Shown: positions 2,426 through 25,988, numbered from the stretch's first letter. The stretch: 32,000 nt of DNA from Pseudodesulfovibrio mercurii (GCF_000189295.2 NC_016803.1:1680001-1712000), one strand, 5' to 3'. The notes: generated by a model from the sequence alone, not told the origin. Program-made: numbers and translations.

Positions 2426-4936
2426 CTAGGCGGAGGCGAGTTCGCCGATGAGGGCGTCGAGTTCGCGGGCCACGGCGTTCAGTTCCCGGCAGGCCTGGGC
2501 GGACTGGCTCATGGCCTGGCTGGTGTTCTCGGAGATGCGGTGCATCTCCTCAGTGGCCCGAGTGATCTGTTCCGAGGTGGCGGACTGCTCCTCGGCCGCG
2601 GCGGCGATGCCCTGGACCTGGCGCACGGAGTCGCGCGAGAAATCCACGATCTCGGTCAGGGACTCGCCCGCCTCTTCGGCCAGGGAGGTGCAGGTCTCGA
2701 CCACGTGGGCGACCTTGTCGGTCTCGTTGACGTTGCGCTGGGCCATGGACTGGATGGCCCCGATGGCGCTGCCCACCTCGGTGGTGGCGACCATGGTCTT
2801 TTCGGCCAGCTTGCGGACCTCGTCCGCGACCACAGCGAAGCCGCGCCCGGCGTCGCCCGCGCGGGCGGCCTCGATGGCCGCGTTCAGGGCCAGCAGGTTG
2901 GTCTGGTCGGCGATGTCGTTGATGACGGTCATGACCCGGCCGATGTCGTCGGCCTGGCGGCCGAGTTCGCTCATGTTGTCCCGGAGCAGGGAGGCCAGTT
3001 CCTGGACCTCGTTGACCGAGCCGACCACCTTAACGACCACGTCGCGCCCGGCCTGGGCCTGGCCCTCGGCCTGCTCCGCGTTGCGCGCCGCCTCGTTGGC
3101 ATTGCGGGCCACTTCGAGCACGGTGGCGTTCATCTCCTCCATGGCCGTGGCCGTCTCGGTGGCGCGGGCGCTCTGCTCCTCTGCCCCGTCGCGGGACTCC
3201 TCCACGCGCTCGGAGAGCTGTTGCGACGCACCGGCCACGCGCTCGGAGAGCCTGCCGGCCCGGTCGGCCACATCCAGCATCTTGCGCTGGGAGTCGAGGA
3301 TGTCCGTCTGGTCCACGATGACTTCGAGGGCCCCGACCACCCTGCGTTCCGCGTCGTACAGGGGGCTGGCGTACCCCTTGATGTCCACCTCGCCCGCCTC
3401 GAGTTTGCCCCGGGTGGAACCCACGACGCGGTCCATGGAGCGCATGGCCTGGGTGCAGACGCAACTGTCGGTCTGGCAGATGTCGGTGTTGAAGACGCTG
3501 CTGCACGGCGTGCCCAGCAGTTCGGCGCCGTCGCGACCGGCGATCTCCTCGGCGTTCCTGTTGACGAAGAGCAGGTTGTGGTCGCGGTCCACGGTGAAGA
3601 TCGGGAAGGGGAAGGAGTCGAAGGTGGCGGTGTAGGTGTCGGCCACCCGGTTCATACTGTGGATGAGCTGGGCGTAGGCCCCCTCGTACCGGCCCGCGTC
3701 GCCGCGCGCCCGGACCACGCCCCGTGCGACCTCGCGGGCCGTGGCCTCGCAGTCGTCGATGAGCGCAGAGAGATTGACCGGGATGGAGCTGACCGAGCGG
3801 TGGATGGCCCCGATCTCGTCGCGGCCGGTCACGGGCTCGCCCTGGGTCAGGTTGCCGCGCGAGACCTGTTCGGCCAGGGCGCGGATGCGCTCCAGAGGCC
3901 GGAACACGGCGTAGCGCATGACCCCGAGCAGGGTCAGCAGGGGCACGAGCACGGCCAGCCCGAAGAGAATCAGGACCAGGGCCACCGCGCCGTCGATGAT
4001 CGCATTCTGGATCGAGATGTCGCGGGCCAGGGTGATCACGCCGATGGGTTTGCCCTGGTAGTCCTTCACCGGCAGGTAGGCCACGGCGTAGTTCCCGTCC
4101 ACGGTCACGTACCGGCCGTCAACGGCCTTGCGCAGCCGGTCCGCCGTGACGAGGCTGTCCAGTTCGGCGTTCTCCTTGCCCGCCACGCGGACAAAGGCCT
4201 TGCCGACCAGGGGATATTTCGCGGGGTCCTGGAGGTTGGTGGTGGTCGGGAGCAGGGAGGCGTCCATATACAATGTATAGAAGCTGCCCTCGTCGTCCCG
4301 GAAGAGCTTGAAGACGTCGCCGTAGCTCTTGAGTACCTCCACCGAGCCGAGCTGGCGGCCCTCCGCGTCCTTGACCGCGACCACGCCCCGGATGGCGAAG
4401 CCGCCGCGTCCGGGCTCAATGCCTCGGCGCGGCTTGCCGTCGCGGTTCACGTCCAGGACGGTCTTGCGGAAGCTGGAAATGTCGTCGGACACGTCCACCC
4501 ACTTGCCGTTGCGCTTGGCCTGCTTGTCGAGCCACATGCGCGCCAGGCTGCGCCCGTTGGGCAGATGGAAGTGGAGACGGAGCTTTTCGCCCATGGCCTC
4601 CCGGTACCCGGCCAGGACGGGCGCGAGTTCGGCGCGCAGGGCCTCGCGGGCATTCTGCACCACGGGATCGCTCTCATTGCCGAGATCGCCCTGGTGGGCC
4701 AGGGAAAAGGCCCGGATGACGCCGGGCATGCGGCTGAACAGAGAGGCCTCCTCCTCGGCCCGGACAGCGGCCTCCTCGGTGTTCTGCTCCAGGGTCCTGG
4801 CCGCGTTGCCCACCAGCATCCCGGCAAAGGAGGCCCGCAGTTCGCCGAACCGGCCGGTCAGCAGGAAGAACCCGATAACGCCGATCAGCAGAACCAGCGG
4901 GATGGTCGGCAACAGGACTTTGTACTTGATGCTCAT
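2426..4936 (-). CDS. Methyl-accepting chemotaxis protein: TM1, periplasmic Cache-like domain, TM2, HAMP, Cys-rich PAS, MCP signalling domain
   Basis: 836 aa. N-terminal TM ([19 protein letters not shown]) and second TM ([23 protein letters not shown]). HAMP-like segment, then the highly conserved MCP hairpin [42 protein letters not shown] before ATG 4936. Confidence 0.92.
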
Positions 4937-5319
4937 CGTCTATGCTCTCCGGATGATGGGACGGCTCTCTGGCGCGGCCGCCGACTCTTGATGAATGGGT
5001 ACCTGGGCGCAGGCACGGGCCATGACGCTCCACCCTAACACAAATTTATCCGCTGACAACCGCGGAGGCCGCATCATAGTAAGCATGTTCCTAATTTCAC
5101 ATTATTTTCGCCAATATCCCCGAACCGGGCCCGTGGAGCCGCCGCGCTTGTGAAAAATCGACATAAGCCCTGTCCCCGTGAGCGGGGACGCTCCCCCGGC
5201 GGGCCTCGGACGTGAAAAGGCTTGCCCTGCGGGACGATGTATGCCAAAAGGCCCGTTCCGCGAGCAGAACGGACCGACCGAACGGGCACGTCCCGGCCGA
5301 CACGGACTCCGCGCCCCGC

Positions 5320-5397
5320 GTCCCCATCGTCTAGCCTGGTCCAGGACGACGGCCTTTCACGCCGTTAACAGGGGTTCAAATCCCCTTGGGGACGCCA
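5320..5397 (+). tRNA. tRNA-Glu (anticodon UUC), CCA encoded
   Basis: Cloverleaf folded by hand. Acceptor GTCCCCA/TGGGGAC. Anticodon stem ACGGC/GCCGT with loop CTTTCAC. T-arm AGGGG-TTCAAAT-CCCCT. Discriminator G followed by CCA. Confidence 0.95.
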
Positions 5398-5406
5398 AGG
5401 AAACAC

Positions 5407-5443
5407 AAGGCCTTACGCAGATTGCGTAAGGCCTTTTCCTTTT
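5407..5443 (+). terminator. Rho-independent terminator of the tRNA-Glu transcript
   Basis: Perfect 13-bp stem AAGGCCTTACGCA / TGCGTAAGGCCTT, 3-nt loop, followed by TTTTCCTTTT. Confidence 0.8.
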
Positions 5444-5562
5444 CACGCGGCACCCGCGAGCGTCATTGCTCCTGGATCAGTTCCCGACCGCATCGGCCAG
5501 GGCCGCATCCGGGGCTTCCCGGCGGCAGGGAGGACACGCCTTGCGGCCCCGCTTCCGCGCAC

Positions 5563-6090
5563 TCAGAGCGAATACTGGTATTTGACCGTGATGGCGATGG
5601 TCCAGGACTGTCCCTGGAGGATGGCGGGACGCTTGACGTTGCCGCTGGCGGCTTGGATGGCCTTTCGGGCGGCGGCGTCGAGCCTGGGGTTGCCCGAGGA
5701 GTGGAGCATGACGATGCCGGAGAAGGTGTCGTCCGGGAGGATGCGGAACCGGTAGCGGGCATTGCCGATCAGGTCGTCCAGGTCGCTGCCCGGCGGACGC
5801 CTGTTGTGCTCAACGGCGCTGTGCACCTGGGCCAGGAATCGTTTCAGGGCCTGCTGCCGAAGGCGTCTGGCCGCGTCCTCATGGTCGGTCTTTTCCTGGT
5901 CGCCGGAGACCCCCTGCTCCAGGGAGAGGCCGATGGTCCCCGGCGTGGACACCGAGAGATCGAAGTTCGTCGGGACGACGATGGTCTCGCCGGAAGGGAC
6001 CGGGGTCCGATGCCAGTGCTGTTCCAGCAACAGCCAGTGCAGGAACAGGGAGATGACCAGGCAGGTCCAGATCGTCTGCCGGGAGGTCAC
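5563..6090 (-). CDS. tonB: Short TonB-family energy transducer (N-terminal TM anchor + TonB_C-like domain, no Pro-rich spacer)
   Basis: 175 aa. TM helix IWTCLVISLFLHWLLL carries the S-x3-H TonB signature. The C-terminal beta-rich domain ends ...WTIAITVKYQYSL. Its start overlaps the exbD stop by 4 nt (ATGA, 6087-6090). Confidence 0.6.
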   Translation of the reverse strand: MTSRQTIWTCLVISLFLHWLLLEQHWHRTPVPSGETIVVPTNFDLSVSTPGTIGLSLEQGVSGDQEKTDHEDAARRLRQQALKRFLAQVHSAVEHNRRPPGSDLDDLIGNARYRFRILPDDTFSGIVMLHSSGNPRLDAAARKAIQAASGNVKRPAILQGQSWTIAITVKYQYSL

Positions 6091-6521
6091 TGATCCGTGC
6101 CGCCTGTTTCGCTCTGACGGGTGTTGGTCGCGATGATCAGGTTGTTGAACCCGGTCTTGCGCACCATGTCGATGATCCGCACGAACCGCTCGACCCGCGC
6201 CCGGGGCGCGGATTTGAGCAGGATGTGGTCCGGTTGCAGGGAAACGGGCCGCTCAAAGGTGTTTTGCAGCAGGTGGGTCAGATCGTTCAGGGTGATCTGC
6301 GCGGTATCGCAGAGGATGTCGCCGTTTTCCCTGAGTTCGATTTCCATGGACCTGCCGGTCACGGCCCGGGCCGTCTCGGCATAGGGCAGTTCGATGTCCA
6401 CCCCCTTGGCCGTGAAGACCGCGGAGACCACGAAGAAGATGAGCAGGATGAACACCACGTCCAGCAGCGGGGTGATGTCCGGCGAGGCGGGCCTGGGGGC
6501 GTTGTGTTTGAAGTCGATCAT
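6087..6521 (-). CDS. exbD: Biopolymer transport protein ExbD/TolR
   Basis: 144 aa. DITPLLDVVFILLIFFVVS single TM with the conserved Asp, typical of ExbD/TolR. 4-nt overlap with exbB (6518-6521). Confidence 0.88.
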   Translation of the reverse strand: MIDFKHNAPRPASPDITPLLDVVFILLIFFVVSAVFTAKGVDIELPYAETARAVTGRSMEIELRENGDILCDTAQITLNDLTHLLQNTFERPVSLQPDHILLKSAPRARVERFVRIIDMVRKTGFNNLIIATNTRQSETGGTDQ

Positions 6522-7108
6522 GGCTCCGCATCCGGAACGGGGATCAGGCGCGCCGCGTGCTGCATGGCATGGGCGATCTTATCGTATTCACGACAGAACC
6601 AGCGATGGGCCAGCACGGCCGGGATGGCGATGCACAGCCCGGCGGCCGTGGTCAGCAGGGCCTGCCAGATGCCCCCCGCCAGCACGGTGATATCCACGTC
6701 CGCCGACGACGCCAGCCGGGAAAAGGCGTTGATCATGCCCAGCACCGTGCCCAGCAGTCCCATGAGCGGGGCCGTGGCCGCGGCCGTGGACAGAAAGTCG
6801 AGCCGGGCATTGAACCCGAACAGGACCTCGTCACCGGCGGCCTGGATGGCCGCCTCGCGGTGCGCCCTGTCCGGGGAGAAACAGGCCGCGAAAAAGGGGG
6901 CAAAGGTCGGGGCCGTTTCCTCCACGCCGTCCATGGCGGCCGCCCTGCCCTGCGTGCGGAAGGTTTCGAGCAGGGTGTCCAGCGCCTGGCCGGAGGGGAA
7001 ACGGCGGGTGGTGAAGACCACGAGGCGTTCCAGGATCACGGCCAGGGCCGCCACGGACAGGATGAGCAGCGGCCACATCATGAAGCCGCCCAGTTGCAGA
7101 AGACTCAT
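6518..7108 (-). CDS. exbB: MotA/TolQ/ExbB proton-channel protein
   Basis: 196 aa, three TM segments. Conserved C-terminal block APLMGLLGTVLGMINAF...GGIWQALLTTAAGLCIAIPA. Its ATG overlaps the TGA of the upstream GTPase gene (ATGA at 7105-7108). Confidence 0.9.
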   Translation of the reverse strand: MSLLQLGGFMMWPLLILSVAALAVILERLVVFTTRRFPSGQALDTLLETFRTQGRAAAMDGVEETAPTFAPFFAACFSPDRAHREAAIQAAGDEVLFGFNARLDFLSTAAATAPLMGLLGTVLGMINAFSRLASSADVDITVLAGGIWQALLTTAAGLCIAIPAVLAHRWFCREYDKIAHAMQHAARLIPVPDAEP

Positions 7109-8931
7109 GCGTCCGCTCCTTGCAGTCCTTCCAATTGGGGAAGGTTGACGAGGTTCTTGCCGATGGCCACCAGGAATCCCTCCTGGTCGAAGTCGTCGCC
7201 CAGGGAGGAGAGCTCGTGGCGGCCGCAGACATACTGGACCACCACGGGCTGCGGAGAGTCCGCGAGGTGGACTATCCCCTTGAGCCGAAACACGGATTCC
7301 GGCAGGCCGTCCAGGGCCTGCAGAAGCCGGCCCCGGTCAAGGGCGGCCGGATAGAGAAACCGCTGCGAGGTGAAGCCCTCGTGGGTGTGGTCGTGGCGGT
7401 GCGCGTGGGGCCTGGCGGGCAGGAGCTCCGGGCGCTGCTCGAACGGGTCCGTGTCGTAGAGGCGGCCGGGGTTGACGGCCCCGAATTCCGTTTCCACCAC
7501 CACGGCGCGGTGATTCAGTTGGCGAAGGGTCGTGCGCAGGGCCGCCAGTTCCTCCTTGTCCGCCAGGTCGCATTTGTTCAGCAGGATGATGTCCGCCGCC
7601 GCGACCTGGTCGCGGGCGATCTCGTTGTCGGCGAGCAGTTTCGGGGCGTTGGCCGCGTCCACCAGGGTGGTGATCGAGTCCAGGCGCACCAGGGGACGCA
7701 GCGTCTCCAGCTCGTTGAGAATATTGAATGGATTGGCCAGCCCGGTGGCCTCAAGCACGATGACCTTGGGGGAGAACCGGGCCTTGAGCTGTTCGATGCC
7801 CTTGGAGAGGTTGCCCGCCAGGGTGCAGCAGACGCACCCCTCGTCCAGCTCCACGATGGAATCGTCGCCTTCCAGCAGCCTGCCGTCCACGCCCGTCCGG
7901 CCGATCTCGTTCTGGATGATGGCGACCAGTTCATCGCGGGCCGCGTGGTATTCCAGCAGTTGATTGAGGAAGGTGGTTTTCCCGGAACCGAGGAAGCCGC
8001 TGAGCACGATCAGGCCGGGGCGGCTGTCAAAGGCCGGGGCATAGGCCTGGTCGAGGGAGAGGGCCCGCAGGTCGTGGGTCTTCCAGAACAGGGCGTCGTC
8101 CAGCGGGGGCGGCAGCGTGTCCCTGGATGCGGGCCCGGCGGCCGTTTCGCACCGGGCCGGGGCGAACGCGGCCATGGCGGCCGGTGTTTCCGGGTCGCCC
8201 CAGCAGAGCATGTCGGTGATCCGCTCGATGCCGTCGTCAAGGGGCGTCCGCCTGCCCGCGCCGTCGAAGACGATGCCGTGGTCCGCACTGCGGATGCGTC
8301 CGACCCGGCACGGCGGCTCTTCCAGGCTCCGGGTCACGGCCGCGCCCAGCAGCAAAAGAAAATCCAGGCTGATCGCATGGGCCGGGTAGTCCTCCTCGGC
8401 CTCGCCGGGGGAAATGACCCATTGGTTGTCCGGCGTCCGCACGCCGTCCCCGGCGATGCTCAGTTTCCGGTTCAACGCGCTGCATTGCAGGATCAGCCCC
8501 TTTTCCTCCGGGGTGAGCGAGGCCGACAGCCCGCCCATGCGGAAGGGGGCCATCCATTCGCCCATGGCCGTGAAGCGACGGACGGTCTCGAGATAGTCCG
8601 GCTGGACGGCGGCCATGTTCGCGGCCAGGGACATGGACTCCAGCAGCGATTCGTCGGCCGCCGGGAAATAGTACAGTCCGAGACGGGCGTGCTGTCCCTG
8701 ATCGTCCGCCCAGGCGCTTTCCGTGGCCAGCCCGAAGACGCCCGGCCGGGCGTGGATCTTCAACGTCCAGCCCTGGGGCGCCCTGGGGCACACGGCCATG
8801 CCCTTCCAGCCGACCAGCCGTTTGAACTCCCGGTACTGGCAGGCCGCCAGCAGGCAGTTGGTCAGCATTCCGGGCAGGTCGATCCGCCTGTTCGGGCTGT
8901 GTTGATTCGGCAGTACGGCTGTGAGTTGCAT
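7105..8931 (-). CDS. Two-part protein: uncharacterised N-terminal domain of about 300 aa fused to a G3E-family COG0523 (CobW/YjiA/ZigA-like) metallochaperone GTPase
   Basis: 608 aa. The C-half has P-loop GFLGSGKTTFLNQLL, metal motif GCVCCTL, NKCDL (G4), a His-rich linker PHAHRHDHTHEG and a CobW_C-like tail. I recognise no motif in the N-half. GAGG SD before ATG 8931. Confidence 0.85.
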   Translation of the reverse strand: MQLTAVLPNQHSPNRRIDLPGMLTNCLLAACQYREFKRLVGWKGMAVCPRAPQGWTLKIHARPGVFGLATESAWADDQGQHARLGLYYFPAADESLLESMSLAANMAAVQPDYLETVRRFTAMGEWMAPFRMGGLSASLTPEEKGLILQCSALNRKLSIAGDGVRTPDNQWVISPGEAEEDYPAHAISLDFLLLLGAAVTRSLEEPPCRVGRIRSADHGIVFDGAGRRTPLDDGIERITDMLCWGDPETPAAMAAFAPARCETAAGPASRDTLPPPLDDALFWKTHDLRALSLDQAYAPAFDSRPGLIVLSGFLGSGKTTFLNQLLEYHAARDELVAIIQNEIGRTGVDGRLLEGDDSIVELDEGCVCCTLAGNLSKGIEQLKARFSPKVIVLEATGLANPFNILNELETLRPLVRLDSITTLVDAANAPKLLADNEIARDQVAAADIILLNKCDLADKEELAALRTTLRQLNHRAVVVETEFGAVNPGRLYDTDPFEQRPELLPARPHAHRHDHTHEGFTSQRFLYPAALDRGRLLQALDGLPESVFRLKGIVHLADSPQPVVVQYVCGRHELSSLGDDFDQEGFLVAIGKNLVNLPQLEGLQGADA

Positions 8932-8950
8932 GGCGCGACCTCGTTGGGGC

Positions 8951-8981
8951 GGCCCGGCCCGCCGAGACGGCGGACCGGGCC
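8951..8981 (-). promoter_or_regulatory. GC-rich hairpin in the 5' leader of the COG0523-fusion gene (12 of 13 bp paired, 5-nt loop)
   Basis: GGCCCGGCCCGCC gagac GGCGGACCGGGCC. It lies 20-50 nt upstream of the start codon and has no U-tract, so it is not a classical terminator. Confidence 0.4.
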
Positions 8982-9123
8982 TGATGGGGTGGAGGTTAGA
9001 TACGGGTATTCCCAGGGTGTGGGCGAAGGGCGATCCGCCGCGAGGCCGCGTCGGCCTCGAACGGGTTTCGCGTCCGGCGGATCATTCTTTCGCACATCCT
9101 GTTGTCGCTTTCGTCCGTGCCGG

Positions 9124-10293
9124 TCAGCAGCCGAAGCTGATTTTGTCTCCGTTGCCGAGATAGTCCTTGGAGGCCGAGCGGAAACGGGCGGTCCCGCGCA
9201 CCACCGGATAACCGGCCTCGATGAACTTCTTGGCCGTCAGGTGGCCGGTGCAGTGGTTGCAGCCGATGCGCTCGAAGCCCCATTGGCCGAGGGAGATGAC
9301 CAGGTCGTCGTATTTGGGGTCCCAATCCTCGAAGGGAGAGATGTGGAGCCCGCCGTAGATGCCGTAGAACCGGTCGTTGTCGTACTTGAGGTTGGCGTGG
9401 GCGAAGTCCGCGAACTTGAGGATGCCCTGGTGGCAGCAGCCGGAGATGAGCAGCAGCCCCTTGTCCTTGATGTTGAAGGCCAGCGAGGTCTCGCCGAACA
9501 CGCGGTTGATGATGGGCACGTCGAACTTGAGCAGCGCCATGCCCGGGATGATCGGGGTGATGGGCTTGTCCGCGATGGTCATTTCGCCCTTGTAGCCGCA
9601 GTCCTTGATGTACTGGAGGCCTTCCTTGTAGAAGCCGTCGTGCACGTACAGGGGGATGCGGTTGTCGTACTTGACCGTGACCGGCAGGCCCCAGAAGTGA
9701 TCCCAGTGCTCATGGGAGATGAACAGGGCCTCGATCTGCTGCTCCTCGAGCATCTTGTCGATGCCCTCGCGCTTGAAGCTGTTTTCCATCCACTCGTAGG
9801 ACCAGCCGGTATCCAGCAGGTACTTGTGGATCGTGCCGTCCAGGTCCTCGACCTCCAGCAGGCAGGAATAGCCGCCCGGGTTCTCCGGGTGCAGGGCCAG
9901 CTTCTTCTGGAGATCCCAGGCCTTTTGCAGGTCGTTGGGCAGGAGTTCCTTGATGGAGGCGATACCCTCGTCGTAGGAGCCCTTGGCCGATCCCTTGCCG
10001 TTGGCGAACGGGGCCCAGTTCAGGGTGTACTGGTTGACCAGCAGGCCGCCGGCCTCGTGGATGTCGCCGATCAGGTGGGCGTTGTTGAACCAGCTCGTCT
10101 CGGAGATGTTGGTCACCCGGACGCTACGGCAGGCGCCGAAGTCCTGCATCTTTCTTTCGACCTTGGGCAGCCGGTTGTATGCCGAGGAGGTATAGGAGTA
10201 CATCCCCATGCTGGCGAACGCACCGGCGACCAGGCCGGTGGCGGCGCCCTTCACGAAGTCGCGTCTGCTGATGTTTTTCTTGTCGTTGCTCAT
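9124..10293 (-). CDS. Tat-exported MBL-fold (metallo-beta-lactamase superfamily, COG1237-like) metallo-hydrolase
   Basis: 389 aa. Twin-arginine signal MSNDKKNISRRDFVKGAATGLVAGAFASMG. HxHxDH metal motif FISHEHWDHFWG. AAGGAG SD before ATG 10293. Confidence 0.85.
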   Translation of the reverse strand: MSNDKKNISRRDFVKGAATGLVAGAFASMGMYSYTSSAYNRLPKVERKMQDFGACRSVRVTNISETSWFNNAHLIGDIHEAGGLLVNQYTLNWAPFANGKGSAKGSYDEGIASIKELLPNDLQKAWDLQKKLALHPENPGGYSCLLEVEDLDGTIHKYLLDTGWSYEWMENSFKREGIDKMLEEQQIEALFISHEHWDHFWGLPVTVKYDNRIPLYVHDGFYKEGLQYIKDCGYKGEMTIADKPITPIIPGMALLKFDVPIINRVFGETSLAFNIKDKGLLLISGCCHQGILKFADFAHANLKYDNDRFYGIYGGLHISPFEDWDPKYDDLVISLGQWGFERIGCNHCTGHLTAKKFIEAGYPVVRGTARFRSASKDYLGNGDKISFGC

Positions 10294-10314
10294 TATATTC
10301 TCCTTGTTCCCCGC

Positions 10315-11718
10315 TTAGTTGATGACGGTGAAGTTGGCACCGACCCAGGGCAGGGCGCTGATGATGACGAAGTAGAACAGCACCCCGGCGCACAACCCCA
10401 CGGCGAGCCCCTTGGCCAGGCCCGGCGTCCAAAAGACATCGTGGGCCACGACCTCTTCCTCGACCTCCTCGAGCTCGATTTCGGTCTTGGGCACGGCCTT
10501 CCAGCCCGGCCAGCCGTCCATGAACCAGACATTGATCAGGAAGATGTTGATCAGCCAGATCATCGGGATCATGGGGAACTGCTGGGGATGGGAGAATCCC
10601 TTCTGGGTTCCCAGGAACAGGTGGGAGGTCTTGTAGTAGATGATGTAGACAACGGCGGCCAGGGCGGCGCTCAACAGGGTGCGGATGCAGACGTTGACCG
10701 GGCGGCTGAACTTGGTCGGCCAGTTGTTGCAGTAGAAGGTCAGGTACAGGGAGGGCACGAGCCAGAAGATGGCCATTTCGCCGACGTGCAGCCAGCGCCA
10801 GTCCGGAGCCATCAGACGGCGGGTGCCGCGGATGGTCTCGCCCCAGACCAGATCCTGCGCGTAGTACAGGAAGAAGCACAGGCACACGGCGATGGCGATG
10901 ATGCCGAAGAAGGAGGCGATCCTGCGCAGGGCGTTGTTCTTGATCAGGTTGAAGGGATAGCGTTCCCATATGGTCTCGAAAAGCCAGACCACCACGGTGC
11001 AGCACATGATCCAGGCGATGTGGAAGTTGCCGGACACCGTGTTGGCGAATTTTTCCCAATAAGGCGGACAGATGGCCGTGAACTTCTGCCAGGGGTAGAA
11101 GAGGATGGCCATATGCGAATGCATGGTCAGGAAGTAGACGATCTTGCTCAGGAAGAAGGTGACCACCGCGATAGTGATGCCGCGGGCGGGCTGTTCCAGC
11201 TTCTGCCAGGGCGCGTTTTCGCAAGCCACCACCCAGCTCGGCGAGAGCCAGGAGGCGATGGCGGCGAACATCATGATCGCCTCGGCCGCGTATTCAATGG
11301 AATAGAAGTCGGTGATGCCCATGGCTTCGAGCCTGGCCGGGTTGAAGTAGGCGATGCCGAAGTTGCCGAGGATCTCGACGAAGAAGCCCTTGATGAGGAT
11401 GACCATGGCCGCCACGCTGACGAGCGTGAGCACCGCACCCTTGACCAGGGGATGCGTGTTTTTGAGCCAGGACCGCTTGAAGGGCCAGAAATCGAAAATG
11501 TAGGCGACCCAGATGAAGAGGATGAGGAGCCAGCGGCAGACCATGTAGCCCACATAGGGGGTATACATGCGCATGAGCCCGCGCGGATCCTGGAATATCC
11601 ACCAGGTGGCGTAGAAAAAGGCGAGGATGACGATCGTATTCACCAGCGCGGGGATAGGCCCGCTCCAACGTTTGACCAGCTTCCGACTCTCAAGGTAGCT
11701 GACACTACTGCTGTCCAT
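10315..11718 (-). CDS. Polytopic inner-membrane protein (about 11 TM helices, very Trp/Phe/Tyr-rich), family not recognised
   Basis: 467 aa with regularly spaced hydrophobic segments. AGGAG SD. It is 21 nt upstream of the MBL gene, so they are likely co-translated as one operon. Confidence 0.75.
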   Translation of the reverse strand: MDSSSVSYLESRKLVKRWSGPIPALVNTIVILAFFYATWWIFQDPRGLMRMYTPYVGYMVCRWLLILFIWVAYIFDFWPFKRSWLKNTHPLVKGAVLTLVSVAAMVILIKGFFVEILGNFGIAYFNPARLEAMGITDFYSIEYAAEAIMMFAAIASWLSPSWVVACENAPWQKLEQPARGITIAVVTFFLSKIVYFLTMHSHMAILFYPWQKFTAICPPYWEKFANTVSGNFHIAWIMCCTVVVWLFETIWERYPFNLIKNNALRRIASFFGIIAIAVCLCFFLYYAQDLVWGETIRGTRRLMAPDWRWLHVGEMAIFWLVPSLYLTFYCNNWPTKFSRPVNVCIRTLLSAALAAVVYIIYYKTSHLFLGTQKGFSHPQQFPMIPMIWLINIFLINVWFMDGWPGWKAVPKTEIELEEVEEEVVAHDVFWTPGLAKGLAVGLCAGVLFYFVIISALPWVGANFTVIN

Positions 11719-11781
11719 TTTACACTCCTACCCAAGTTGGCCGGTCGGGGGTGATCGGTCCCCGAGCCGTAACTCTGCTTG

Positions 11782-11997
11782 TTACAATGTTGTTGTGGGG
11801 GCAGATTTCGAAATCATGGTTTCCAATTGTTCAAGGGTAACGGTAGCCGGATCGATGCCCATGGCCATGGCGCGGAGGAACAGCTCCTTTTCCGTCAAGG
11901 GCGCGGTCGTTTCCGTTGATTGTGCAGTGCCCCGGAGTCGCTCCCCCGTCTGGCCACCGAACGGCATCAATCGGCTGAAAAATTCTCTTCGTTTCAT
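11782..11997 (-). CDS. Small (71 aa) protein with an N-terminal RR motif (MKRREFFSRL) but no hydrophobic h-region; hypothetical
   Basis: The ORF sits between the GntR gene and the membrane gene (gaps of 33 and 63 nt). It has a plausible helical C-part (ELFLRAMAMGIDPATVTLEQLETMI). SD is weak and third-position GC is lower than in neighbouring genes. Confidence 0.5.
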   Translation of the reverse strand: MKRREFFSRLMPFGGQTGERLRGTAQSTETTAPLTEKELFLRAMAMGIDPATVTLEQLETMISKSAPTTTL

Positions 11998-12030: not shown

Positions 12031-12711
12031 TCAGTATTCCGGCAGGACCAGCCGACGCAGGGCCTGCACGCACTCCTTGGCGAGCTGTTCGGCGCTGTCG
12101 GCCTGGCCGCCCTTGAGCGCGTTGAACAGCTCGACATGGTAGGCGAACAGGGAGTCCACCTGCACCTCGGCGAGCCCTCCCCCGCTGTTCGAAAGGGTGG
12201 CGGAAGCCATCCCCAGCTCCTTGAGGAACAGCGTGAGGTAGTCGTTGGACGCGATCTCGGCCAGGGCGAGATAGAAGTAGATGAAGCGGTGTCCGATGGT
12301 CGGCAGGTCCGAGTTGACGATGGTCTGGCCGATGTCGGACGTGGCCTGCTCCAGCCTGGCGATGTCCGGGGCGGAGAGCTTGCCCGCCTGGGAGCGCGCC
12401 AGGCCGGGCGCGATCATGCTCAGCGCCTCGATCACCTGACGGAACGCGGTCGCGTTCGTGCGGACGCGCAGGCTTTCCCAGTTCAGGCGACCCTCCAGGC
12501 TCTTCAGGTAGCAGCCGCTCTTCTCCCGAATCTCGAGATAGCCCATGGATTCGAGGTTGCAGAGGGCCTCGCGCACGGTGTTCCGGCTTGTATCGAACAT
12601 GGTCGCCAGCCGGCGTTCCCCGGGCAGCTTGTCGCCGATTGAAAAGGCCCCGCCGTTGAGCATGTCCACCATCTTGCGGCAAATAATGGGTCGTTGTGTT
12701 GTTGTCTGCAT
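12031..12711 (-). CDS. GntR-family transcriptional regulator, FadR subfamily (wHTH + FCD ligand-binding domain)
   Basis: 226 aa. wHTH signature GDKLPGERRLATMFDTSRNTVREALCNLESMGYLEIRE. All-helical C-terminal domain. No obvious SD upstream of ATG 12711, so the start is uncertain; the alternative is M14. Confidence 0.85.
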   Translation of the reverse strand: MQTTTQRPIICRKMVDMLNGGAFSIGDKLPGERRLATMFDTSRNTVREALCNLESMGYLEIREKSGCYLKSLEGRLNWESLRVRTNATAFRQVIEALSMIAPGLARSQAGKLSAPDIARLEQATSDIGQTIVNSDLPTIGHRFIYFYLALAEIASNDYLTLFLKELGMASATLSNSGGGLAEVQVDSLFAYHVELFNALKGGQADSAEQLAKECVQALRRLVLPEY

Positions 12712-12713
12712 AT

Positions 12714-12726
12714 CTGGCCCAACCAG
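12714..12726. promoter_or_regulatory. FadR/GntR-type operator-like half-palindrome CTGGCCCAACCAG, abutting the GntR start codon
   Basis: Matches the t.GT-N3-AC.a architecture used by the FadR subfamily, with one arm mismatch. It is part of a ~20-bp direct repeat with the site at 12820. Confidence 0.45.
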
Positions 12727-12819: not shown

Positions 12820-12832
12820 CTGGTCCAACCAG
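12820..12832. promoter_or_regulatory. FadR/GntR-type operator candidate CTGGTCCAACCAG (perfect TGGT-N3-ACCA palindrome)
   Basis: Perfect inverted arms CTGGT/ACCAG. The flanks (AAACTGGTCCAACCAGATTTGAG) repeat the sequence at 12712-12733. Confidence 0.5.
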
Positions 12833-12997
12833 ATTTGAGAACAAGAAATCGAAAAGCGGGACATTTTTCGTGAACCGCCTCAATTTTCTATGGAATTATG
12901 GGAAAAAACCGATTGTCCGTGGAGAACGCGAAAAAACGGCGTCCGCTCCGGTTACGGAACGGAAACAATCGGAGGGGCCGAGGTGGTTGGGCCAGAA

Positions 12998-14275
12998 TCA
13001 GCGCTTTCGGGCCAGGCAGCGTTCCAGGTTGACGAGGAATTCCTGGTGCAGTTCCTTCAGCGGGGCGTCGGAATCCGGATCATAGCTGTCGGGCTCGGTC
13101 GAGCAGAAGATCAGCACGTAGGCCAATTCGCCGTCGGTGAAAAACGGCTGTGCGTAATAGGAGCGGATGCCGTGGGGGATGAACAGGGCCCAGTCGATGG
13201 CCTTGATGCTCTTGGATGTCTCCGCCACCACATGGCAGGGCTGGTTGAAACGCAGGATGCTCTCCGCGATGGACCCCTCATAGGGATGCGCGAGTTCTTC
13301 GGGGTCCTTGTCGAACGGAGCGCCCACGCCGGTGACCGAGACGACGTTCCTGTTGATGAAGATGCGCGACAGGAGCAGGCCGTTGGTGGGGGAGCGCCTG
13401 GGGAGGGCCTTGAGCAGGGCCTTGAGCAGCGTTTTGACCGAGGCGCAGCGCCGCAGGGAGGCGACGGAAAATCCGGTGGACACGGTGTCGTTGCCCCTCA
13501 CGGGCAATCCCTTGCAGGCCGTGCAGTTGTTGTGATGGTACAGCGTCATCCAGAGGAGATTGTCCTCCTGCCGCGCGATGGCCTGGATGTGGGCGGTACA
13601 GAGATGGCTCTGGCCCAGCGCGTCGGTTATGAGCAACCCCCCGTTCCAGTGGTCCGAAAAGATGAGTTCCTCGTAAATCTGATACAGGGCGGTGTCCGGA
13701 TTGTCGCGCAGCAGGTCCTGGAGGGTCAGGCGCGACAAGGCCTGGTCGTCGTGCCCCAGGAATTGCCGGGCGGCCTGGTTGGCCAGATGGACGGTCCGGT
13801 CCACGAAACGGACCAGCAGGACGGGGTCGTCCACCAAGTCGATCCTGTCCGCCAGCTTGGGGCTCCCGGAGGCCTTGAGGATGGTTTCCGCATGGACGGA
13901 GATGTCCATGAGAATCCCCAGGGAGCAACGCGGGTAGGCCGGGTCGGGCATGCCCATCAGTTTGAACCATTTCATCTGCCCGGATTCCGTGCGCACCCGG
14001 AAGGAACAGGCCGTTCTCCTGCGGCTGAGGATCAGCTGATGGCAGGAGCGGAATTGCTGCCTGTCCTCGGGGAGGATGACCTCCTGGGGAATCTGCGGAT
14101 TCTGCAGCACGGCCCTGATCCGTTCCCCCTCGGGGGAGGCCGCGTATTTGTTCAGGAACGTGATCTCGTTGCTGACCACGTCGATTCGCCAGACAATCCC
14201 GGGAAGTTCTTCAAAGTAATTGGCCAGGATTTTTTCTTCGGGATGGCTGTCCGGTTTTACACTGAGATCCGGCAT
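12998..14275 (-). CDS. Stand-alone sensor protein: two PAS-like domains + C-terminal GAF-like domain, no recognisable output domain
   Basis: I place the start at ATG 14275 (MPDLSVKPDS...) with AAGGA SD; the ORF-track extension to 14674 is Arg/Pro-rich junk. PAS-like segments: ELPGIVWRIDVVSNEITFLNKYAA... and VLLVRFVDRTVHLANQAARQFLGH... No HisKA, HATPase, GGDEF or HTH motifs. Confidence 0.7.
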   Translation of the reverse strand: MPDLSVKPDSHPEEKILANYFEELPGIVWRIDVVSNEITFLNKYAASPEGERIRAVLQNPQIPQEVILPEDRQQFRSCHQLILSRRRTACSFRVRTESGQMKWFKLMGMPDPAYPRCSLGILMDISVHAETILKASGSPKLADRIDLVDDPVLLVRFVDRTVHLANQAARQFLGHDDQALSRLTLQDLLRDNPDTALYQIYEELIFSDHWNGGLLITDALGQSHLCTAHIQAIARQEDNLLWMTLYHHNNCTACKGLPVRGNDTVSTGFSVASLRRCASVKTLLKALLKALPRRSPTNGLLLSRIFINRNVVSVTGVGAPFDKDPEELAHPYEGSIAESILRFNQPCHVVAETSKSIKAIDWALFIPHGIRSYYAQPFFTDGELAYVLIFCSTEPDSYDPDSDAPLKELHQEFLVNLERCLARKR

Positions 14276-14601
14276 GAGTTTCCTTTGTCGTGATACGGGA
14301 ATGTTGATCGGCAGCCCGAGTCTTAACGCATTTTGAGAACGATTGGCAATCAGCGGCGGAGTTGGCCCCACCACTATGCGCAACTTACGGGAAAAGCGGG
14401 GAGAAATTGCGGGCGTCGGCGCTGCTTCGACAGCGTCACGGCGGGTAGTCCGGGACGGTATGGAGGGTATGGCGTCAGGATGGGCGTGGGGTACGATCGG
14501 CTTTTTCCTGTCCTTTATTTCATGGGAAGCACACGGCCCCGCGCGGCTCGCAGAGCCTTTTAGCCTGCCCGCCCCCCGGACGCGCGGCCTGGCCCTCCCT
14601 A

Positions 14602-14671: not shown

Positions 14672-15365
14672 CATTGTATTGTTTTGTTCTGTTGCCCGGT
14701 TTTTTCCCGTTATCTAGGGTGAGAATGAACCAAAAGTCCACCCGTTCGGCCGGGCGGCGGCGACGCCGTCACGAACGGGTGCGGGATCGCCTTCCGGGGA
14801 AGGGCTCCGGGAGGCTGGCCCGTGTGGATCGGCCGCAATGCAGGGGAAGGTATGCTCGCAGTCCGACACGCGAAACACGTCCCACAGAACAAGCCCGCCG
14901 AGCCGGCGTTCCCGGCCCGGCGATGCTGAGGGGGAGCCCATGGGCACCAGGTCCGGTTCCCTTCGATCCCCGCTCCCGCAAGCGCCGCCTCGCCCCGCGC
15001 CGTCTCGCCCCGCGCCCGGTCGAAGGCCGGTGCGGCCGCGCGCTGACGCCTCCTCGTCCTCCCCGCCTGTCCCGAGAGCAACCCGCCATGGCGGGTTTCA
15101 CCATACCGTCGATGGAGGAATCCATGTCCGCATCCATCCGTAACAAGCCGTCATCCCTCCCGTCGGCCGCCTGTGTCCCGTTTTCGGGACTCGGGCACGC
15201 CATGGCGGCGGTGAAGGCCGTGGCCCGATACGCCCGCCCCGACCCGGAGACCGCCCCTGCCCTGCGGCCGGTCCCCGGACCCGCCGGGGCCCGTCGCCAC
15301 GACCTGCTGCGCCGTCTTTGCCGGGAACCACGGGCCGGATGACACACCAAACCAAAGGAGTGGGT

Positions 15366-18300
15366 ATGACCGTCAACAGAAGAAGCTTTCTCAAACTGGC
15401 CGCAGTGACCGCCGTTTCGTCGGCGTTCTGCGGGCTGGGATTCGGGTCCGAGGCCCTGGCCGTGGACCGGATCGCCATGCTCCAGCCCCAGTGGAGCAAA
15501 CAGACGACCTCGGTCTGCTGTTACTGCGCCGTGGGCTGCGGCCTGATCGTCAACACCGACCTCAAGACCAAGCGGGCCGTCAACGTCGAGGGCGACCCGG
15601 ACCATCCCATCAACGAGGGGGCCACCTGCGCCAAGGGCGCGTCCATCTGGCAGCTGGCCGAGAACGACCTGCGGCCGAAGCGCCCCATGTACCGCGCGCC
15701 CCATGCCACGGAATGGAAGGAGGTCTCCTGGGAGTGGGCCCTGGGTGAAATCGCCAAGCGGGTCAAGAAGACGCGCGACGCCAGCTTCACCGAAAAGAAC
15801 GCCAAGGGGCAGGTGGTCAACCGCTGCAACGGCCTGGCCTCGGTGGGCTCGGCGGCCATCGACAACGAGGAGTGCTGGACCTACCAGGCCATGCTCCGCG
15901 CCCTGGGCCTGGTCTGGATCGAGCACCAGGCGCGCATCTGCCACAGCTCCACGGTGGCGGCCCTGGCCGAGAGCTTCGGACGCGGGGCCATGACCAACCA
16001 CTGGAACGACATTGCCAACAGCGACTGCATCCTGATCATGGGCAGCAACGCGGCCGAGAACCACCCCATCTCCTTCAAGTGGGTGACCGAGGCCATGACC
16101 AGGGGGGCCAAGCTCATCCACATCGACCCGCGCTTCACCCGCACCTCGGCCAAGGCGGACCTCTACTGCCAAATCCGTGCGGGCTCGGACATCGCGGTCC
16201 TCGGCGGGCTGATCAAGTACATCCTGGACAACGACCTGATTCAGAAGGACTACGTGGTCAGCCACACCAACGCGACCTTCGTGGTCGGCGACAAGTACGA
16301 CTTCCATGACGGGCTGTTCAGCGGCTACCACAAGAACGGCGACGACGCGGACTACGCGGGGGCCTACGACAAGTCCCAGTGGGCCTACAAGACGGACGCC
16401 CAGGGGCTGCCGGTGCGGGACGAGACCCTGACCGACCCCCGGTGCGTGTACAACCTGCTCAAACGGCACTACGCCCGCTACACCGTGGACAAGGTCGTCA
16501 GCGCCTCGGGCATCGACCGCGACGGGCTGCTCGAATTCTACAAGAGCTTCGCGGCCACGGGCAAGCCGGACAGGGCCGGGACCATCATGTACGCCATGGG
16601 CTGGACCCAGCACACCGTGGGCACGCAGTACATCCGGACCATGTCCATGGTCCAGTTGCTGCTCGGCAACATCGGCGTGTCCGGCGGCGGGGTCAACGCC
16701 CTGCGCGGCGAGTCCAACGTCCAGGGGTCCACGGACCACTGTCTGCTGTGGCACATCCTGCCCGGCTACCTGGCCATGCCCAACGCCTCCCTCTCGACCT
16801 ACGAGGCATACGTCGCCGCCAAGGCCAAGCCGCACCTGCAAGGGGCCAAGGACCCCAAGAGCGCGGCCTGGTGGCAGTACTACCCGAAATACATGTCGAG
16901 CTTCCTCAAGGCCATGTACCCCGAGGCCACGGCCGACCAGGCCTACGCCTGGCTGCCCAAGGCCGAGGACGGCACGACCTACACCTGGCTCCAGCTCTTC
17001 GAGGCCATGGACAAAAAGGCCTTCACCGGCTTCTTCGCCTGGGGCATGAACCCGGCCTGCGGCGGGGCCAACGCGGGCAAGAACCGGCGGGCCATGGCCA
17101 ACCTGGACTGGATGGTCAACGTCAACATCTTCGACAACGAGACCGGCTCCTTCTGGCGCGGGCCCGGCGTGGACCCGAAGAAGGTCAAGACCGAGGTCTT
17201 CTTCCTGCCCTGCTGCGTGTCCATCGAGAAGGAGGGGTCCATCACCAACTCAGGCCGCTGGATGCAGTGGCGCTACCAGGGGCCCGACCCCAGGGGCGAG
17301 TCCAAGTCCGACGGCCACATCATGACCGAGCTGTTCGAGGCCGTCCGCGCCCTGTACGCCAAGGAGGGCGGCGCCTTCCCCGAGCCCATCAGTAATCTGG
17401 CCGTGGAGATGTGGAAGAAGGACGGGCAGTACGACTCCAACCAAGTGGCCAAGCTGATCAACGGCTACTTCCTCAGGGACGTGACCATCAAGGGCACGAC
17501 CTACAGGAAGGGCACGCTGGTGCCGAGCTTCACCCTGCTCCAGGACGACGGCTCCACCAGCTCGGGCAACTGGCTGTACTGCAACTCATACACCGAGCAG
17601 GGCAACATGGGCGCGCGCCGGAGCACCGCGCAGACCCCGGAGCAGGCCAGGATCGGGCTGTTCCCCAACTGGTCCTGGTGCTGGCCGCTGAACCGGCGGA
17701 TCATCTACAACCGCGCCTCCTGCGACAACACGGGCAAGCCCTACGCCCCGCAGAAGCCGGTGATCACCTGGAACGGCGAGAAGTGGGTCGGCGACGTGCC
17801 GGACGGCGGATGGGCCCCGGGCACCAAGTACGCCTTCATCATGCAGCCCCACGGCCACGGCCGCATCTTCGGCCCCGGCCGCCAGGACGGCCCCTTCCCC
17901 GAGCACTACGAGCCCATGGAGACCCTGTTCAAGACGCACGAGTTCTCGGCCCAATTGAACAACCCCACCGCCCTGCGCTTCGCCCACGAACCCATGGCCG
18001 TGGCCGATCCCAAGTATCCTTACGTGGTCACGACCTACCGCGTGACCGAGCACTGGCAGACCGGCCTGATGACCCGCCACACCCCGTGGCTGCTCGAAAC
18101 CATGCCGCAGATCTTCGTGGAGATGAGCGAGGAGCTGGCCAGGGAAAAGGGCATCGCCAACGGCGAGAAGGTCACGGTCGAGTCCATCCGGGGCAGCATC
18201 TGGGCCATCGCCATCGTGACCAAGCGGATGCACCCGCTGACGGTCATGGGCAGGACCGTGTACCAGATCGGCCTGCCCTGGTGCTTCGGCTGGCAGATGC

Positions 18301-18413
18301 CCCACGACGGCAGCGGCGGCGACTCCGCCAACCTGCTGTCCCCGGCCGTGGGCGACCCCAACACGGGCATCCCCGAAACCAAGGTCTTCGTGGCCAACGT
18401 CCGCAAGATGTAA
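15366..18413 (+). CDS. fdhA: Periplasmic formate dehydrogenase catalytic subunit (Mo/W-bis-PGD), Tat-exported, cysteine-type (no Sec codon)
   Basis: Start at ATG 15366 (AAAGGAG SD). Tat signal MTVNRRSFLKLAAVTAVSSAFCGLGFGSEALA. N-terminal 4Fe-4S motif CCYCAVGCG...C. Active-site stretch EHQARICHSSTV has TGC (15939-15941) where Sec-type enzymes carry TGA. The ORF is uninterrupted over 1015 aa. Confidence 0.93.
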   Translation: MTVNRRSFLKLAAVTAVSSAFCGLGFGSEALAVDRIAMLQPQWSKQTTSVCCYCAVGCGLIVNTDLKTKRAVNVEGDPDHPINEGATCAKGASIWQLAENDLRPKRPMYRAPHATEWKEVSWEWALGEIAKRVKKTRDASFTEKNAKGQVVNRCNGLASVGSAAIDNEECWTYQAMLRALGLVWIEHQARICHSSTVAALAESFGRGAMTNHWNDIANSDCILIMGSNAAENHPISFKWVTEAMTRGAKLIHIDPRFTRTSAKADLYCQIRAGSDIAVLGGLIKYILDNDLIQKDYVVSHTNATFVVGDKYDFHDGLFSGYHKNGDDADYAGAYDKSQWAYKTDAQGLPVRDETLTDPRCVYNLLKRHYARYTVDKVVSASGIDRDGLLEFYKSFAATGKPDRAGTIMYAMGWTQHTVGTQYIRTMSMVQLLLGNIGVSGGGVNALRGESNVQGSTDHCLLWHILPGYLAMPNASLSTYEAYVAAKAKPHLQGAKDPKSAAWWQYYPKYMSSFLKAMYPEATADQAYAWLPKAEDGTTYTWLQLFEAMDKKAFTGFFAWGMNPACGGANAGKNRRAMANLDWMVNVNIFDNETGSFWRGPGVDPKKVKTEVFFLPCCVSIEKEGSITNSGRWMQWRYQGPDPRGESKSDGHIMTELFEAVRALYAKEGGAFPEPISNLAVEMWKKDGQYDSNQVAKLINGYFLRDVTIKGTTYRKGTLVPSFTLLQDDGSTSSGNWLYCNSYTEQGNMGARRSTAQTPEQARIGLFPNWSWCWPLNRRIIYNRASCDNTGKPYAPQKPVITWNGEKWVGDVPDGGWAPGTKYAFIMQPHGHGRIFGPGRQDGPFPEHYEPMETLFKTHEFSAQLNNPTALRFAHEPMAVADPKYPYVVTTYRVTEHWQTGLMTRHTPWLLETMPQIFVEMSEELAREKGIANGEKVTVESIRGSIWAIAIVTKRMHPLTVMGRTVYQIGLPWCFGWQMPHDGSGGDSANLLSPAVGDPNTGIPETKVFVANVRKM

Positions 18414-18423
18414 GGAGAACGCA

Positions 18424-21766: not shown

Positions 21767-22094
21767 GGTCGTGTCCTCCGCTATGAAACGCCTGCCGCGC
21801 GGCAGGTTGCGTTGCGTGTTCATCGGCGGCGTGCGGCGATGGCGGGCCGACGGACCCGGCCGGGCCGGGTCGGCGTCCGTCCGCGACACGGCGGGCGGAA
21901 CGCAACCGATACCGGCAACCATAGCACACATGGCCTGTTTTGGAAAAGGGACGGGACCCGGCGGACGGCCTGTCGGGCGGGTCCGGCCGATGGGCGGCAA
22001 GGGGCTCGTTTCACAGGTGATCGGCCTGAGGCTCCGGGCGGCGGCGCAAACCGTCACCGAATCGTCACAGTACGGAGCGCGGGGCCGGAGCGGA

Positions 22095-24768: not shown

Positions 24769-24837
24769 GTCCGGGTCAATCCTCCACGGCTGCGGAAACG
24801 GGCCTCCGTCCGCAGGACGGAGGCCCGCAAGGCCGGG

Positions 24838-25842: not shown

Positions 25843-25988
25843 GGTCAACTCCAACTCCTTGAGGTTCATGCAGGACTTTTCCACCAATGCCCAGACCCTA
25901 TAGGAATCGGGAGGGGCCGAAAAATCGTTATCCACTATTCATCGCGGCCGACGTATAGACAAATGCTATGGACCACCCGGACACGGCC

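Follow-up and report, generated by a model that had tools for sequence, protein, structure and literature searches.

What a metal-chaperone GTPase does with a second half of no recognised family is the question raised by a gene of Pseudodesulfovibrio mercurii ND132. The gene lies in the 32,000-nucleotide (nt) window analysed here (GCF_000189295.2, NC_016803.1:1680001-1712000; positions are counted from the first letter of this stretch) and encodes a 608-amino acid (aa) protein in which about 300 N-terminal residues (hereafter the N-domain) precede a GTPase of the COG0523 group. It is followed by exbB, exbD and a short tonB. To our knowledge, the clients of COG0523 proteins and the basis of their specificity are largely unknown, and few chaperone-client pairs are established (nitrile hydratase; ZNG1-METAP1; ZagA-FolE; CobW-cobalt chelatase). 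A first-pass annotation of the window, made from the sequence alone, saw in the four genes either a dedicated metal-limitation module or an ExbB-ExbD motor with the N-domain as its cytoplasmic partner or regulator. The constant neighbours of the fusion gene were found on its other side. They encode a protein of metallo-β-lactamase (MBL) fold with a predicted twin-arginine translocation (TAT) signal and a polytopic membrane protein. The reading to which we give about an even chance is that the 608-aa protein is dedicated to inserting a metal into the MBL-fold protein, at the expense of GTP and ahead of TAT export, with the N-domain recognising this client.

Judged by its motifs, the 608-aa protein is a metal-chaperone GTPase whose COG0523 half is ordinary. 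Residues 308-479 match the Pfam family cobW (PF02492; E = 2.3e-44; 151.6 bits for a gathering cut-off of 20.7) and residues 526-594 match CobW_C (PF07683; E = 1.5e-11; 44.5 bits for a cut-off of 22). The P-loop GFLGSGKTT, the metal motif GCVCC and the His-rich loop HAHRHDHTH are all read in the translation, which bears out the initial assignment of residues ~305-608 to a G3E/COG0523 module. The GCVCC sequence occupies residues 365-369, and its cysteines C366, C368 and C369 are kept in at least 90% of 78 homologues. The CxCC, Walker A and NKxD motifs are all retained across the family and the His-rich loops are often enlarged in homologues. YjiA, HypB and UreG are the top structural matches of the full-length AlphaFold2 model (see below) in Foldseek searches. 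With the COG0523 metallochaperones YjiA, YeiR, ZigA, ZagA, CobW, Nha3 and ZNG1 the protein shares Walker A (GFLGSGKTT), CxCC (GCVCC), an ETTG-like EATG, NKxD (NKCD), a His-rich linker and CobW_C, its best fold match being YjiA. It differs from them in the ~300-aa domain placed before the G-domain, which stands at the start of canonical COG0523 proteins (PMC11672702), in its fixed genomic partner, the TAT-dependent MBL protein, and in its subfamily scores, far below the NCBIfam equivalog cut-offs for CobW (125.4 vs 332.1), ZigA (115.3 vs 600) and the YjiA-type PRK11537 (107.5 vs 361).

The N-domain (residues 1-304) had been reported as unrecognised and this assessment stands: no match was found in Pfam, NCBIfam or PDB sequences, with the domain searched alone or as a 41-member family. 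Comparisons by hhalign showed no relation to the G-domain or to CobW_C, so that it is not a diverged copy of either, and none of one half of the domain to the other. A single match in a word index had suggested that the domain is rare. This was ruled out by an exhaustive HMMER search of 1.84 billion representatives, which retrieved 129 clusters at E ≤ 1e-3, 89 of them at E ≤ 1e-10; the family thus comprises at least 129 clusters, defined at 50% identity. The fusion architecture is found in at least 89 of the 129, in proteins of about 510-780 aa (mostly 560-665) with the P-loop at residue 220-430 (mostly ~270-350). Shorter cluster members are apparent fragments or frameshifts. The word-index match itself (L001; GCA_002900445.1, LQAH01003153.1) comes from a draft assembly with an MBL gene upstream, where both the MBL gene and the fusion gene are frameshifted; the N-domain seemed to be a stand-alone 231-aa protein there because the frameshifts break the genes.

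AlphaFold2 modelled the 608-aa protein from a 78-sequence alignment with a predicted local distance difference test score (pLDDT) of 89.6 and a predicted template modelling score (pTM) of 0.85 (a single-sequence model, with a pLDDT of only 39, was uninformative). In the alignment-based model the N-domain forms a compact module of mixed alpha/beta structure that packs onto the GTPase, a predicted packing that the pTM supports. The conserved N-domain positions are glycines, prolines and aromatic residues together with K58, R118, E94, E98 and E179. No conserved Cys or His is present among the N-domain positions of the family alignment, which fits a binding scaffold and not a metal or catalytic site.

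Conservation of gene order was tallied over 90 loci (L002-L091) obtained from genomes, an assembly look-up and metagenomes; the metagenome scan was queried with an alignment of the membrane protein and yielded more than 446 relatives and 80 loci. The MBL gene directly follows the membrane-protein gene in all 73 loci where this could be scored, and the fusion gene lies downstream of this pair in 47 out of 47. Distant family members in independent assemblies display the same core order. The entire block from the PAS-domain gene to tonB is common to five genome loci (Desulfovibrio caledoniensis, P. karagichevae and metagenome-assembled genomes (MAGs) of Maridesulfovibrio), and the system extends to Rhodoplanes and Rhodobacterales MAGs and to many metagenomes besides the Desulfovibrionales. 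Between loci whose chaperones share 29-57% identity, the membrane and MBL proteins share 57-96%. The fusion is therefore conserved, as a gene-neighbourhood survey called for in the first-pass annotation was to establish, with the MBL and membrane-protein genes as its invariant neighbours; the motor genes accompany it less regularly. The exbB-exbD-tonB trio is present in 13 of the 37 loci with enough flank. It is absent, for example, from a Rhodoplanes MAG (L007) and from L008 and L009, and present in L010. The exbB gene lies immediately downstream of the fusion gene in 10 loci and upstream of the membrane-protein gene in three (L035, and L039 and L040 where it stands beside a paralogous copy). 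In L063, whose downstream flank is too short for inclusion among the 37, the trio is upstream of the regulator genes, as it is in L035.

ExbB and ExbD are assigned to MotA_ExbB (PF01618; 100 bits) and PF02472 (76.9 bits), both above the gathering cut-offs. TonB passes those of TonB_C (PF03544; 26.7 vs 24.6), TIGR01352 (34.8 vs 27.1) and TonB_2. The NCBIfam scores of the motor proteins slightly favour TolQ and TolR and are far below every equivalog cut-off. Scores so far under the cut-offs (CobW, ZigA and YjiA-type for the GTPase; TolQ, ExbB, TolR and ExbD for the motor) indicate that these proteins form distinct subfamilies. The TonB is minimal, as first described: its 175 residues carry an S-x3-H anchor (SLFLH) without a Pro-rich spacer. 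This type is well maintained, with a length of 171-181 aa in all but one of the 15 loci listed (the 150-aa call in L040 is probably truncated), S-x3-H throughout this list and a Pro content of 2-8%. A homology search with the mini-TonB returned close relatives only. The motor shares with ExbB-ExbD-TonB and TolQ-TolR-TolA the Pfam families, the ExbD transmembrane Asp and the TonB S-x3-H motif; it differs from them by its short, spacer-less TonB and because no receptor, tolB or pal gene was found nearby. The absence of a TonB-dependent receptor gene from the window, asserted initially, was upheld for all window open reading frames (ORFs) scanned with Pfam. Nor did a scan of 10 large ORFs flanking seven ExbBD-bearing loci detect one. 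These results cover neighbourhoods, and a partner gene may lie elsewhere in the genome. The genes flanking the ExbBD-bearing loci code mostly for PAS kinases and GGDEF/EAL proteins.

Absence of the fusion and of its ATGA coupling to exbB from close relatives had been named as grounds for refutation. Both are conserved in Pseudodesulfovibrio and Maridesulfovibrio, and also in several metagenomic lineages unrelated to these. Of the 13 distinct loci in which exbB comes next, 9 have the 4-nt overlap between the two genes, and the arrangement is therefore not a chance adjacency. The same coupling, the constant type of mini-TonB and the lack of a receptor gene found nearby would suit the proposal that the N-domain serves the ExbB-ExbD motor as a cytoplasmic partner or regulator and that the GTPase gates or assembles the motor. 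We consider this very improbable. The N-domain protein occurs without exbBD-tonB nearby in 24 of 37 loci, the trio lies upstream and apart from the chaperone gene in L035 and L063, and the neighbours that never vary are the MBL and membrane-protein genes. ExbB-ExbD-mini-TonB is better described as an optional accessory module that is translationally coupled to the chaperone in this lineage.

The MBL-fold protein scores above the cut-offs of Lactamase_B_2 (PF12706; 27.8 vs 27) and Lactamase_B (PF00753; 25.0 vs 22.7) and carries the motif SHEHWDH. Its leader, SRRDFVKGAATGLVAGAF, is recognised as a twin-arginine signal by the NCBIfam model TAT_signal_seq (TIGR01409; 22.5 for a cut-off of 16.7). 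The twin-arginine (RR) motif is found in 60 of 63 distinct MBL N-termini and HxHxDH is kept. The best PDB sequence matches are 7dck, 2p4z and 3h3e. These COG1237-type proteins (7dck, 2p4z, TM1679/3h3e; MJ0301-type annotation) align with it over HxHxDH and the downstream His and Cys motifs; the protein studied here has in addition a TAT leader, about 130 extra N-terminal residues and an obligate membrane partner. On these sequence grounds it is a predicted TAT substrate and the proposed client of the 608-aa protein. The IMG name '7,8-dihydropterin-6-yl-methyl-4-(beta-D-ribofuranosyl)aminobenzene 5'-phosphate synthase' probably does not fit a protein of predicted periplasmic location. Residues 1-40, which comprise the leader, a hydrophobic region and an 'MG.YSYSP' stretch, are conserved across lineages far beyond what is usual for signal peptides, and no obvious AxA cleavage site was seen in them. 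The leader may be kept as a membrane anchor or as a chaperone-binding site.

The 467-aa membrane protein gave no match in Pfam, NCBIfam or PDB. Its invariant motifs are MHSHM, GNFH, WLHVGEM and HPQQFPMIP, and other His, Cys and Trp residues are invariant too. Identity across loci is 63-93%, and the protein forms at least 500 clusters at 90% identity. Database annotations of the locus read 'cobalamin synthesis protein P47K', 'MBL fold metallo-hydrolase' and 'hypothetical protein / AAT family amino acid transporter'; the last label was discarded, the protein matching no amino-acid permease model in Pfam. Small ORFs homologous to the 71-aa ORF of the window (MKRREFFSRL...AMAMGIDPATV at its two ends) are found directly upstream of the membrane-protein gene in about 41 loci. 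The 71-aa peptide belongs to no Pfam family, and its N-terminus resembles a twin-arginine leader but lacks a clear hydrophobic region; the motifs of its family are an N-terminal (S/T)R(R/K)xFF and a C-terminal 'EAxRxGIDP'. The N-domain, the membrane protein and the small peptide are without a model in the Pfam copy (models to 2025) or NCBIfam (June 2026) used throughout this work. Literature searches found no description of the gene cluster, and the combination of N-domain and COG0523 architecture with a fixed gene context is new.

G3E GTPases (UreG, HypB, CobW, Nha3, ZNG1) deliver metals to specific clients, often via adaptor proteins, and TAT substrates are folded and loaded with their cofactors before they leave the cytoplasm. 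Because the fusion gene has invariant MBL and membrane-protein neighbours and the MBL protein has a TAT leader, we infer from gene order and motifs, together with this knowledge of client insertion by G3E proteins, that the 608-aa protein is a metal insertase. It would be an assembly factor of an envelope system composed of the 71-aa peptide, the 467-aa membrane protein and the TAT-exported MBL metalloprotein. The COG0523 half would bind the metal through CxCC with assistance from the His-rich loop, and GTP hydrolysis would drive metal insertion into the folded MBL protein in the cytoplasm, ahead of TAT export. The N-domain would be the scaffold for client specificity, most likely binding the MBL precursor, possibly via the twin-arginine leader. 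Once exported, the MBL protein would act at the periplasmic face jointly with the membrane protein. ExbB-ExbD-mini-TonB would probably drive transport of the system's substrate or metal across the outer membrane, powered by the proton-motive force (PMF). The built-in extra domain and the invariant gene neighbour define a testable chaperone-client pair, which, if the reading is true, would be the first of a COG0523 chaperone with a TAT-exported protein.

By analogy, the same logic of a GTPase with a client-recognition element encoded beside its client applies to UreG with UreF/UreD (urease), HypB with HypA (hydrogenase), Nha3 (Fe-nitrile hydratase) and the N-terminal motif of ZNG1 (METAP1). In the 608-aa protein, adaptor (as proposed) and GTPase are parts of one chain, and no sequence relation of the N-domain to the adaptors of those systems could be detected. 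The TAT proofreading chaperones TorD, DmsD and NapD are comparable as cytoplasmic factors encoded beside a TAT substrate with a conserved leader. They have no sequence similarity to the N-domain, whose model is mixed alpha/beta while TorD and DmsD are all-alpha. Another alternative is a GTP-dependent checkpoint of assembly or export without metal transfer, in which the 608-aa protein would, for instance, hold the TAT leader or the RR-motif peptide back while the complex is not yet ready, and the CxCC motif would be structural or a sensor. RRxF(F/V) N-termini on two proteins of the unit, the MBL protein and the 71-aa peptide, and an N-domain devoid of metal-ligand residues are consistent with such a role. 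CxCC, Walker A and NKxD are nevertheless retained family-wide and the His-rich loops are often expanded in homologues, and both a retained CxCC and enlarged His-rich loops are typical of metal handling, which leaves the checkpoint a slim chance.

The GC-rich hairpin at 8951-8981 has a 14-bp stem (ΔG -33.8 kcal/mol; z = -5.07 vs shuffles). It had been placed in the leader of the fusion gene; the structure is real, but it is intercistronic and not a 5' leader element, because it is inside the spacer between the co-oriented MBL and 608-aa genes. A hairpin of -22 kcal/mol or below follows the MBL stop codon in 47 of 63 family loci, a stability reached in 5 of 63 shuffled controls (median ΔG -26.9 kcal/mol vs -15.2 for shuffles). 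Since it recurs with sequences that are unrelated between loci, it is a conserved intercistronic element. The lack of a T-tract means that it is not a classical terminator. It is most plausibly a partial terminator or a stabiliser of messenger RNA 3' ends, setting structural genes above accessory genes; it would lower or buffer expression of the accessory genes behind it. Note that in P. mercurii an insertion of ~110 nt (about 9015-9120, minus strand) follows the MBL stop codon. It is absent from D. caledoniensis and P. karagichevae and forms a second long GC hairpin (GATCCGCCGG...CCGCGGCGGATC).

A palindrome, YTGGT-N3-RCCAR (Y = C/T, R = A/G), is found upstream of gntR in 39 of 43 loci, and its copies at 12714-12726 and 12820-12832 are the only matches to the pattern within the 32-kb window. 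The palindromes are predicted to be conserved GntR-type operators, and transcription of the unit would most likely start at a promoter that lies upstream of gntR and is under GntR control. Synteny of gntR holds in most loci; in others NifX-like proteins and sigma-54/PAS activators replace GntR and PAS. Occurrence of Zur, Fur and sigma-54 patterns in the window is not above chance and none lies near the operon; for Zur this negative is a weak test. In this the fusion gene differs from Zur-regulated COG0523 genes, as no match to the Zur pattern tried was found near the operon. A scan of positions 5300-9400 with Rfam retrieved tRNA-Glu only, and no riboswitch in the spacer. The idea of a dedicated metal-limitation module thus loses ground: the Zur and Fur patterns tried have no match near the operon, and the system has its own GntR/FCD regulator with a palindrome, or sigma-54/PAS activators.

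Metal acquisition could still be the purpose of the system. ExbB-ExbD-TonB would then power the uptake of a metal chelate through the outer membrane, the MBL protein release or bind the metal in the periplasm, the 467-aa protein with its MHSHM motif move it through the inner membrane, and the COG0523 protein dock via its N-domain on this permease and take the metal. The invariant His, Met and Cys residues of the membrane protein and the His-rich loop of the COG0523 half are in keeping with this, as is the presence of ExbBD-TonB in one third of the loci, scattered over lineages. There is also a precedent in the Zur regulon of Pseudomonas aeruginosa, where COG0523 genes are found in one operon with a TonB component (PMC11672702). 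We nonetheless hold this explanation to be doubtful. In addition to the regulators, which are GntR/FCD with PAS or sigma-54/PAS, and to the Zur and Fur negatives, the motor is missing in two thirds of the loci and no receptor gene was found nearby. The membrane protein and the MBL protein are far better conserved (60-96% identity across distant lineages) than the chaperone (29-57%), a pattern that suggests a core enzyme rather than uptake. The TAT route of the MBL protein, in turn, implies loading of its cofactor in the cytoplasm.

Several observations weigh against the insertase reading that we favour. The link between the N-domain and the MBL protein, the client's metal and its dependence on the GTPase are ones that we infer; equally good candidates for the client are the membrane protein and the small peptide. 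Foldseek searches of the full-length model against PDB and viral libraries gave P-loop/GTPase matches only and none for the N-domain. The role given to the motor is a guess because no outer-membrane receptor was found near any locus, and the 4-nt coupling to exbB in 9 of 13 loci hints at a chaperone-motor relation closer than that with an optional accessory. The T-rich tail that would follow a terminator hairpin is present in 11 of 63 loci and absent from the window and the 52 others.

The insertase reading can be extended to a new class of periplasm-facing membrane metalloenzyme, common in anoxic sediments and built from the RR-motif peptide, the His/Met-rich membrane subunit and a TAT-anchored MBL protein. 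The 608-aa protein would then be a TAT-leader proofreading chaperone fused to a G3E insertase, and the receptor-less motor would be the dedicated PMF-driven partner of the enzyme complex rather than of an outer-membrane transporter. This more elaborate proposal is quite unlikely to hold in full. The surrounding system itself has a moderate chance of being something new. It is a four- to five-gene envelope system without a Pfam or NCBIfam model, accompanied in one third of the loci by a receptor-less mini Ton motor.

The features of the locus are collected in Table 1. The genes from gntR through the 71-aa peptide, membrane protein, MBL protein, hairpin, fusion, exbB and exbD to mini-tonB form one probable unit, with gntR as its probable first gene. 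The four ORFs delimited in the first-pass annotation were confirmed; the upstream half of the unit (MBL, membrane protein, 71-aa ORF and gntR) had been left out. Their chain of 4-nt overlaps was said to be ATGA throughout. This is correct at 7105-7108 and 6518-6521, and the overlap at 6087-6090 reads GTGA, with a GTG start. The intergenic gaps from the MBL gene up to gntR measure 21-63 nt and the spacer between the MBL and 608-aa genes 192 nt.

Table 1. Coordinates of the features of the P. mercurii locus (positions in the window).
Feature	Position	Strand	Remarks
PAS-domain protein, 558 aa	12998-14674	minus	Pfam PAS
Operator-like palindrome 2, CTGGTTGGACCAG	12820-12832		pattern match
Operator-like palindrome 1, CTGGTTGGGCCAG	12714-12726		ends 3 nt upstream of gntR start codon
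gntR, GntR/FCD transcription regulator	12031-12711	minus	Pfam GntR, FCD
71-aa ORF, N-terminal KRREFF, C-terminal AMAMGIDP	11782-11997	minus	no Pfam match
Polytopic membrane protein, 467 aa	10315-11718	minus	no family
MBL-fold protein, 389 aa, COG1237 type, twin-arginine signal, HxHxDH	9124-10293	minus	Pfam, NCBIfam
GC-rich 14-bp hairpin	8951-8981	minus	spacer between MBL and 608-aa genes; no T-tract
608-aa protein gene	7105-8931	minus	N-domain + COG0523 GTPase
N-domain, residues 1-304	about 8020-8931	minus	no family match
COG0523 G3E GTPase + CobW_C, residues 305-608	within 7105-8931	minus	Pfam
exbB, ExbB/TolQ-type proton-channel subunit, 196 aa	6518-7108	minus	Pfam, NCBIfam
exbD, ExbD/TolR-type subunit, 144 aa	6087-6521	minus	transmembrane Asp (LLDVVF); Pfam
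mini-tonB, 175 aa	5563-6090	minus	GTG start; S-x3-H; no Pro-rich spacer
Bidirectional terminator-like hairpin	5407-5435		closes the unit; common to the convergent tRNA-Glu gene
tRNA-Glu(UUC) gene	5320-5397	plus	converges on the operon end

Two plus-strand reading frames were discarded. The first, 12890-14293, appeared conserved initially and is an antisense shadow of the minus-strand PAS gene. The second, an open frame of 1544 aa at 7120-11754, is a GC-rich shadow antisense to four real genes.

Variations of the cluster were seen in several loci. An extra secreted protein is encoded between the MBL and fusion genes in L041, L047, L050, L054, L055, L059, L067, L076 and others; it has about 131 aa, or about 225 aa when present as a tandem repeat, carries a conserved CYTVEG...VCW motif and belongs to no family. 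In one organism (L014 and L039, both on contig Ga0209692_10000261; L040) two paralogous units of membrane-protein, MBL and fusion genes lie ~14 kb apart, and the exbB-exbD-tonB genes accompany one copy only. In L086 (5525-7834, minus strand) the canonical copy adjoins a distant paralogous pair that has the MBL gene first, with 35% identity for the MBL protein and 29% for the membrane protein, so that related two-gene MBL/membrane modules may exist. The 558-aa PAS protein has no recognisable output domain. In many loci a homologue of it lies beside the cluster, upstream or, as in L007 and L021-L026, downstream.

Farther out in the window, the genes at 15318-19149 (plus strand) code for a formate-dehydrogenase-like molybdopterin oxidoreductase (1031 aa, Fe4S4 domain) and a 4Fe-4S dicluster subunit. 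Synteny with the cluster in other genomes does not extend to these genes. They are followed at 19256-25935 (minus strand) by a P-type cation ATPase (19256-22057) and then an ABC transporter composed of a TOBE-domain ATPase, a permease and an SBP_bac_6 binding protein. On the opposite side, downstream of the tRNA gene, an 836-aa methyl-accepting chemotaxis protein with dCache_3, HAMP and PAS domains is encoded at 2426-4936 (minus strand).

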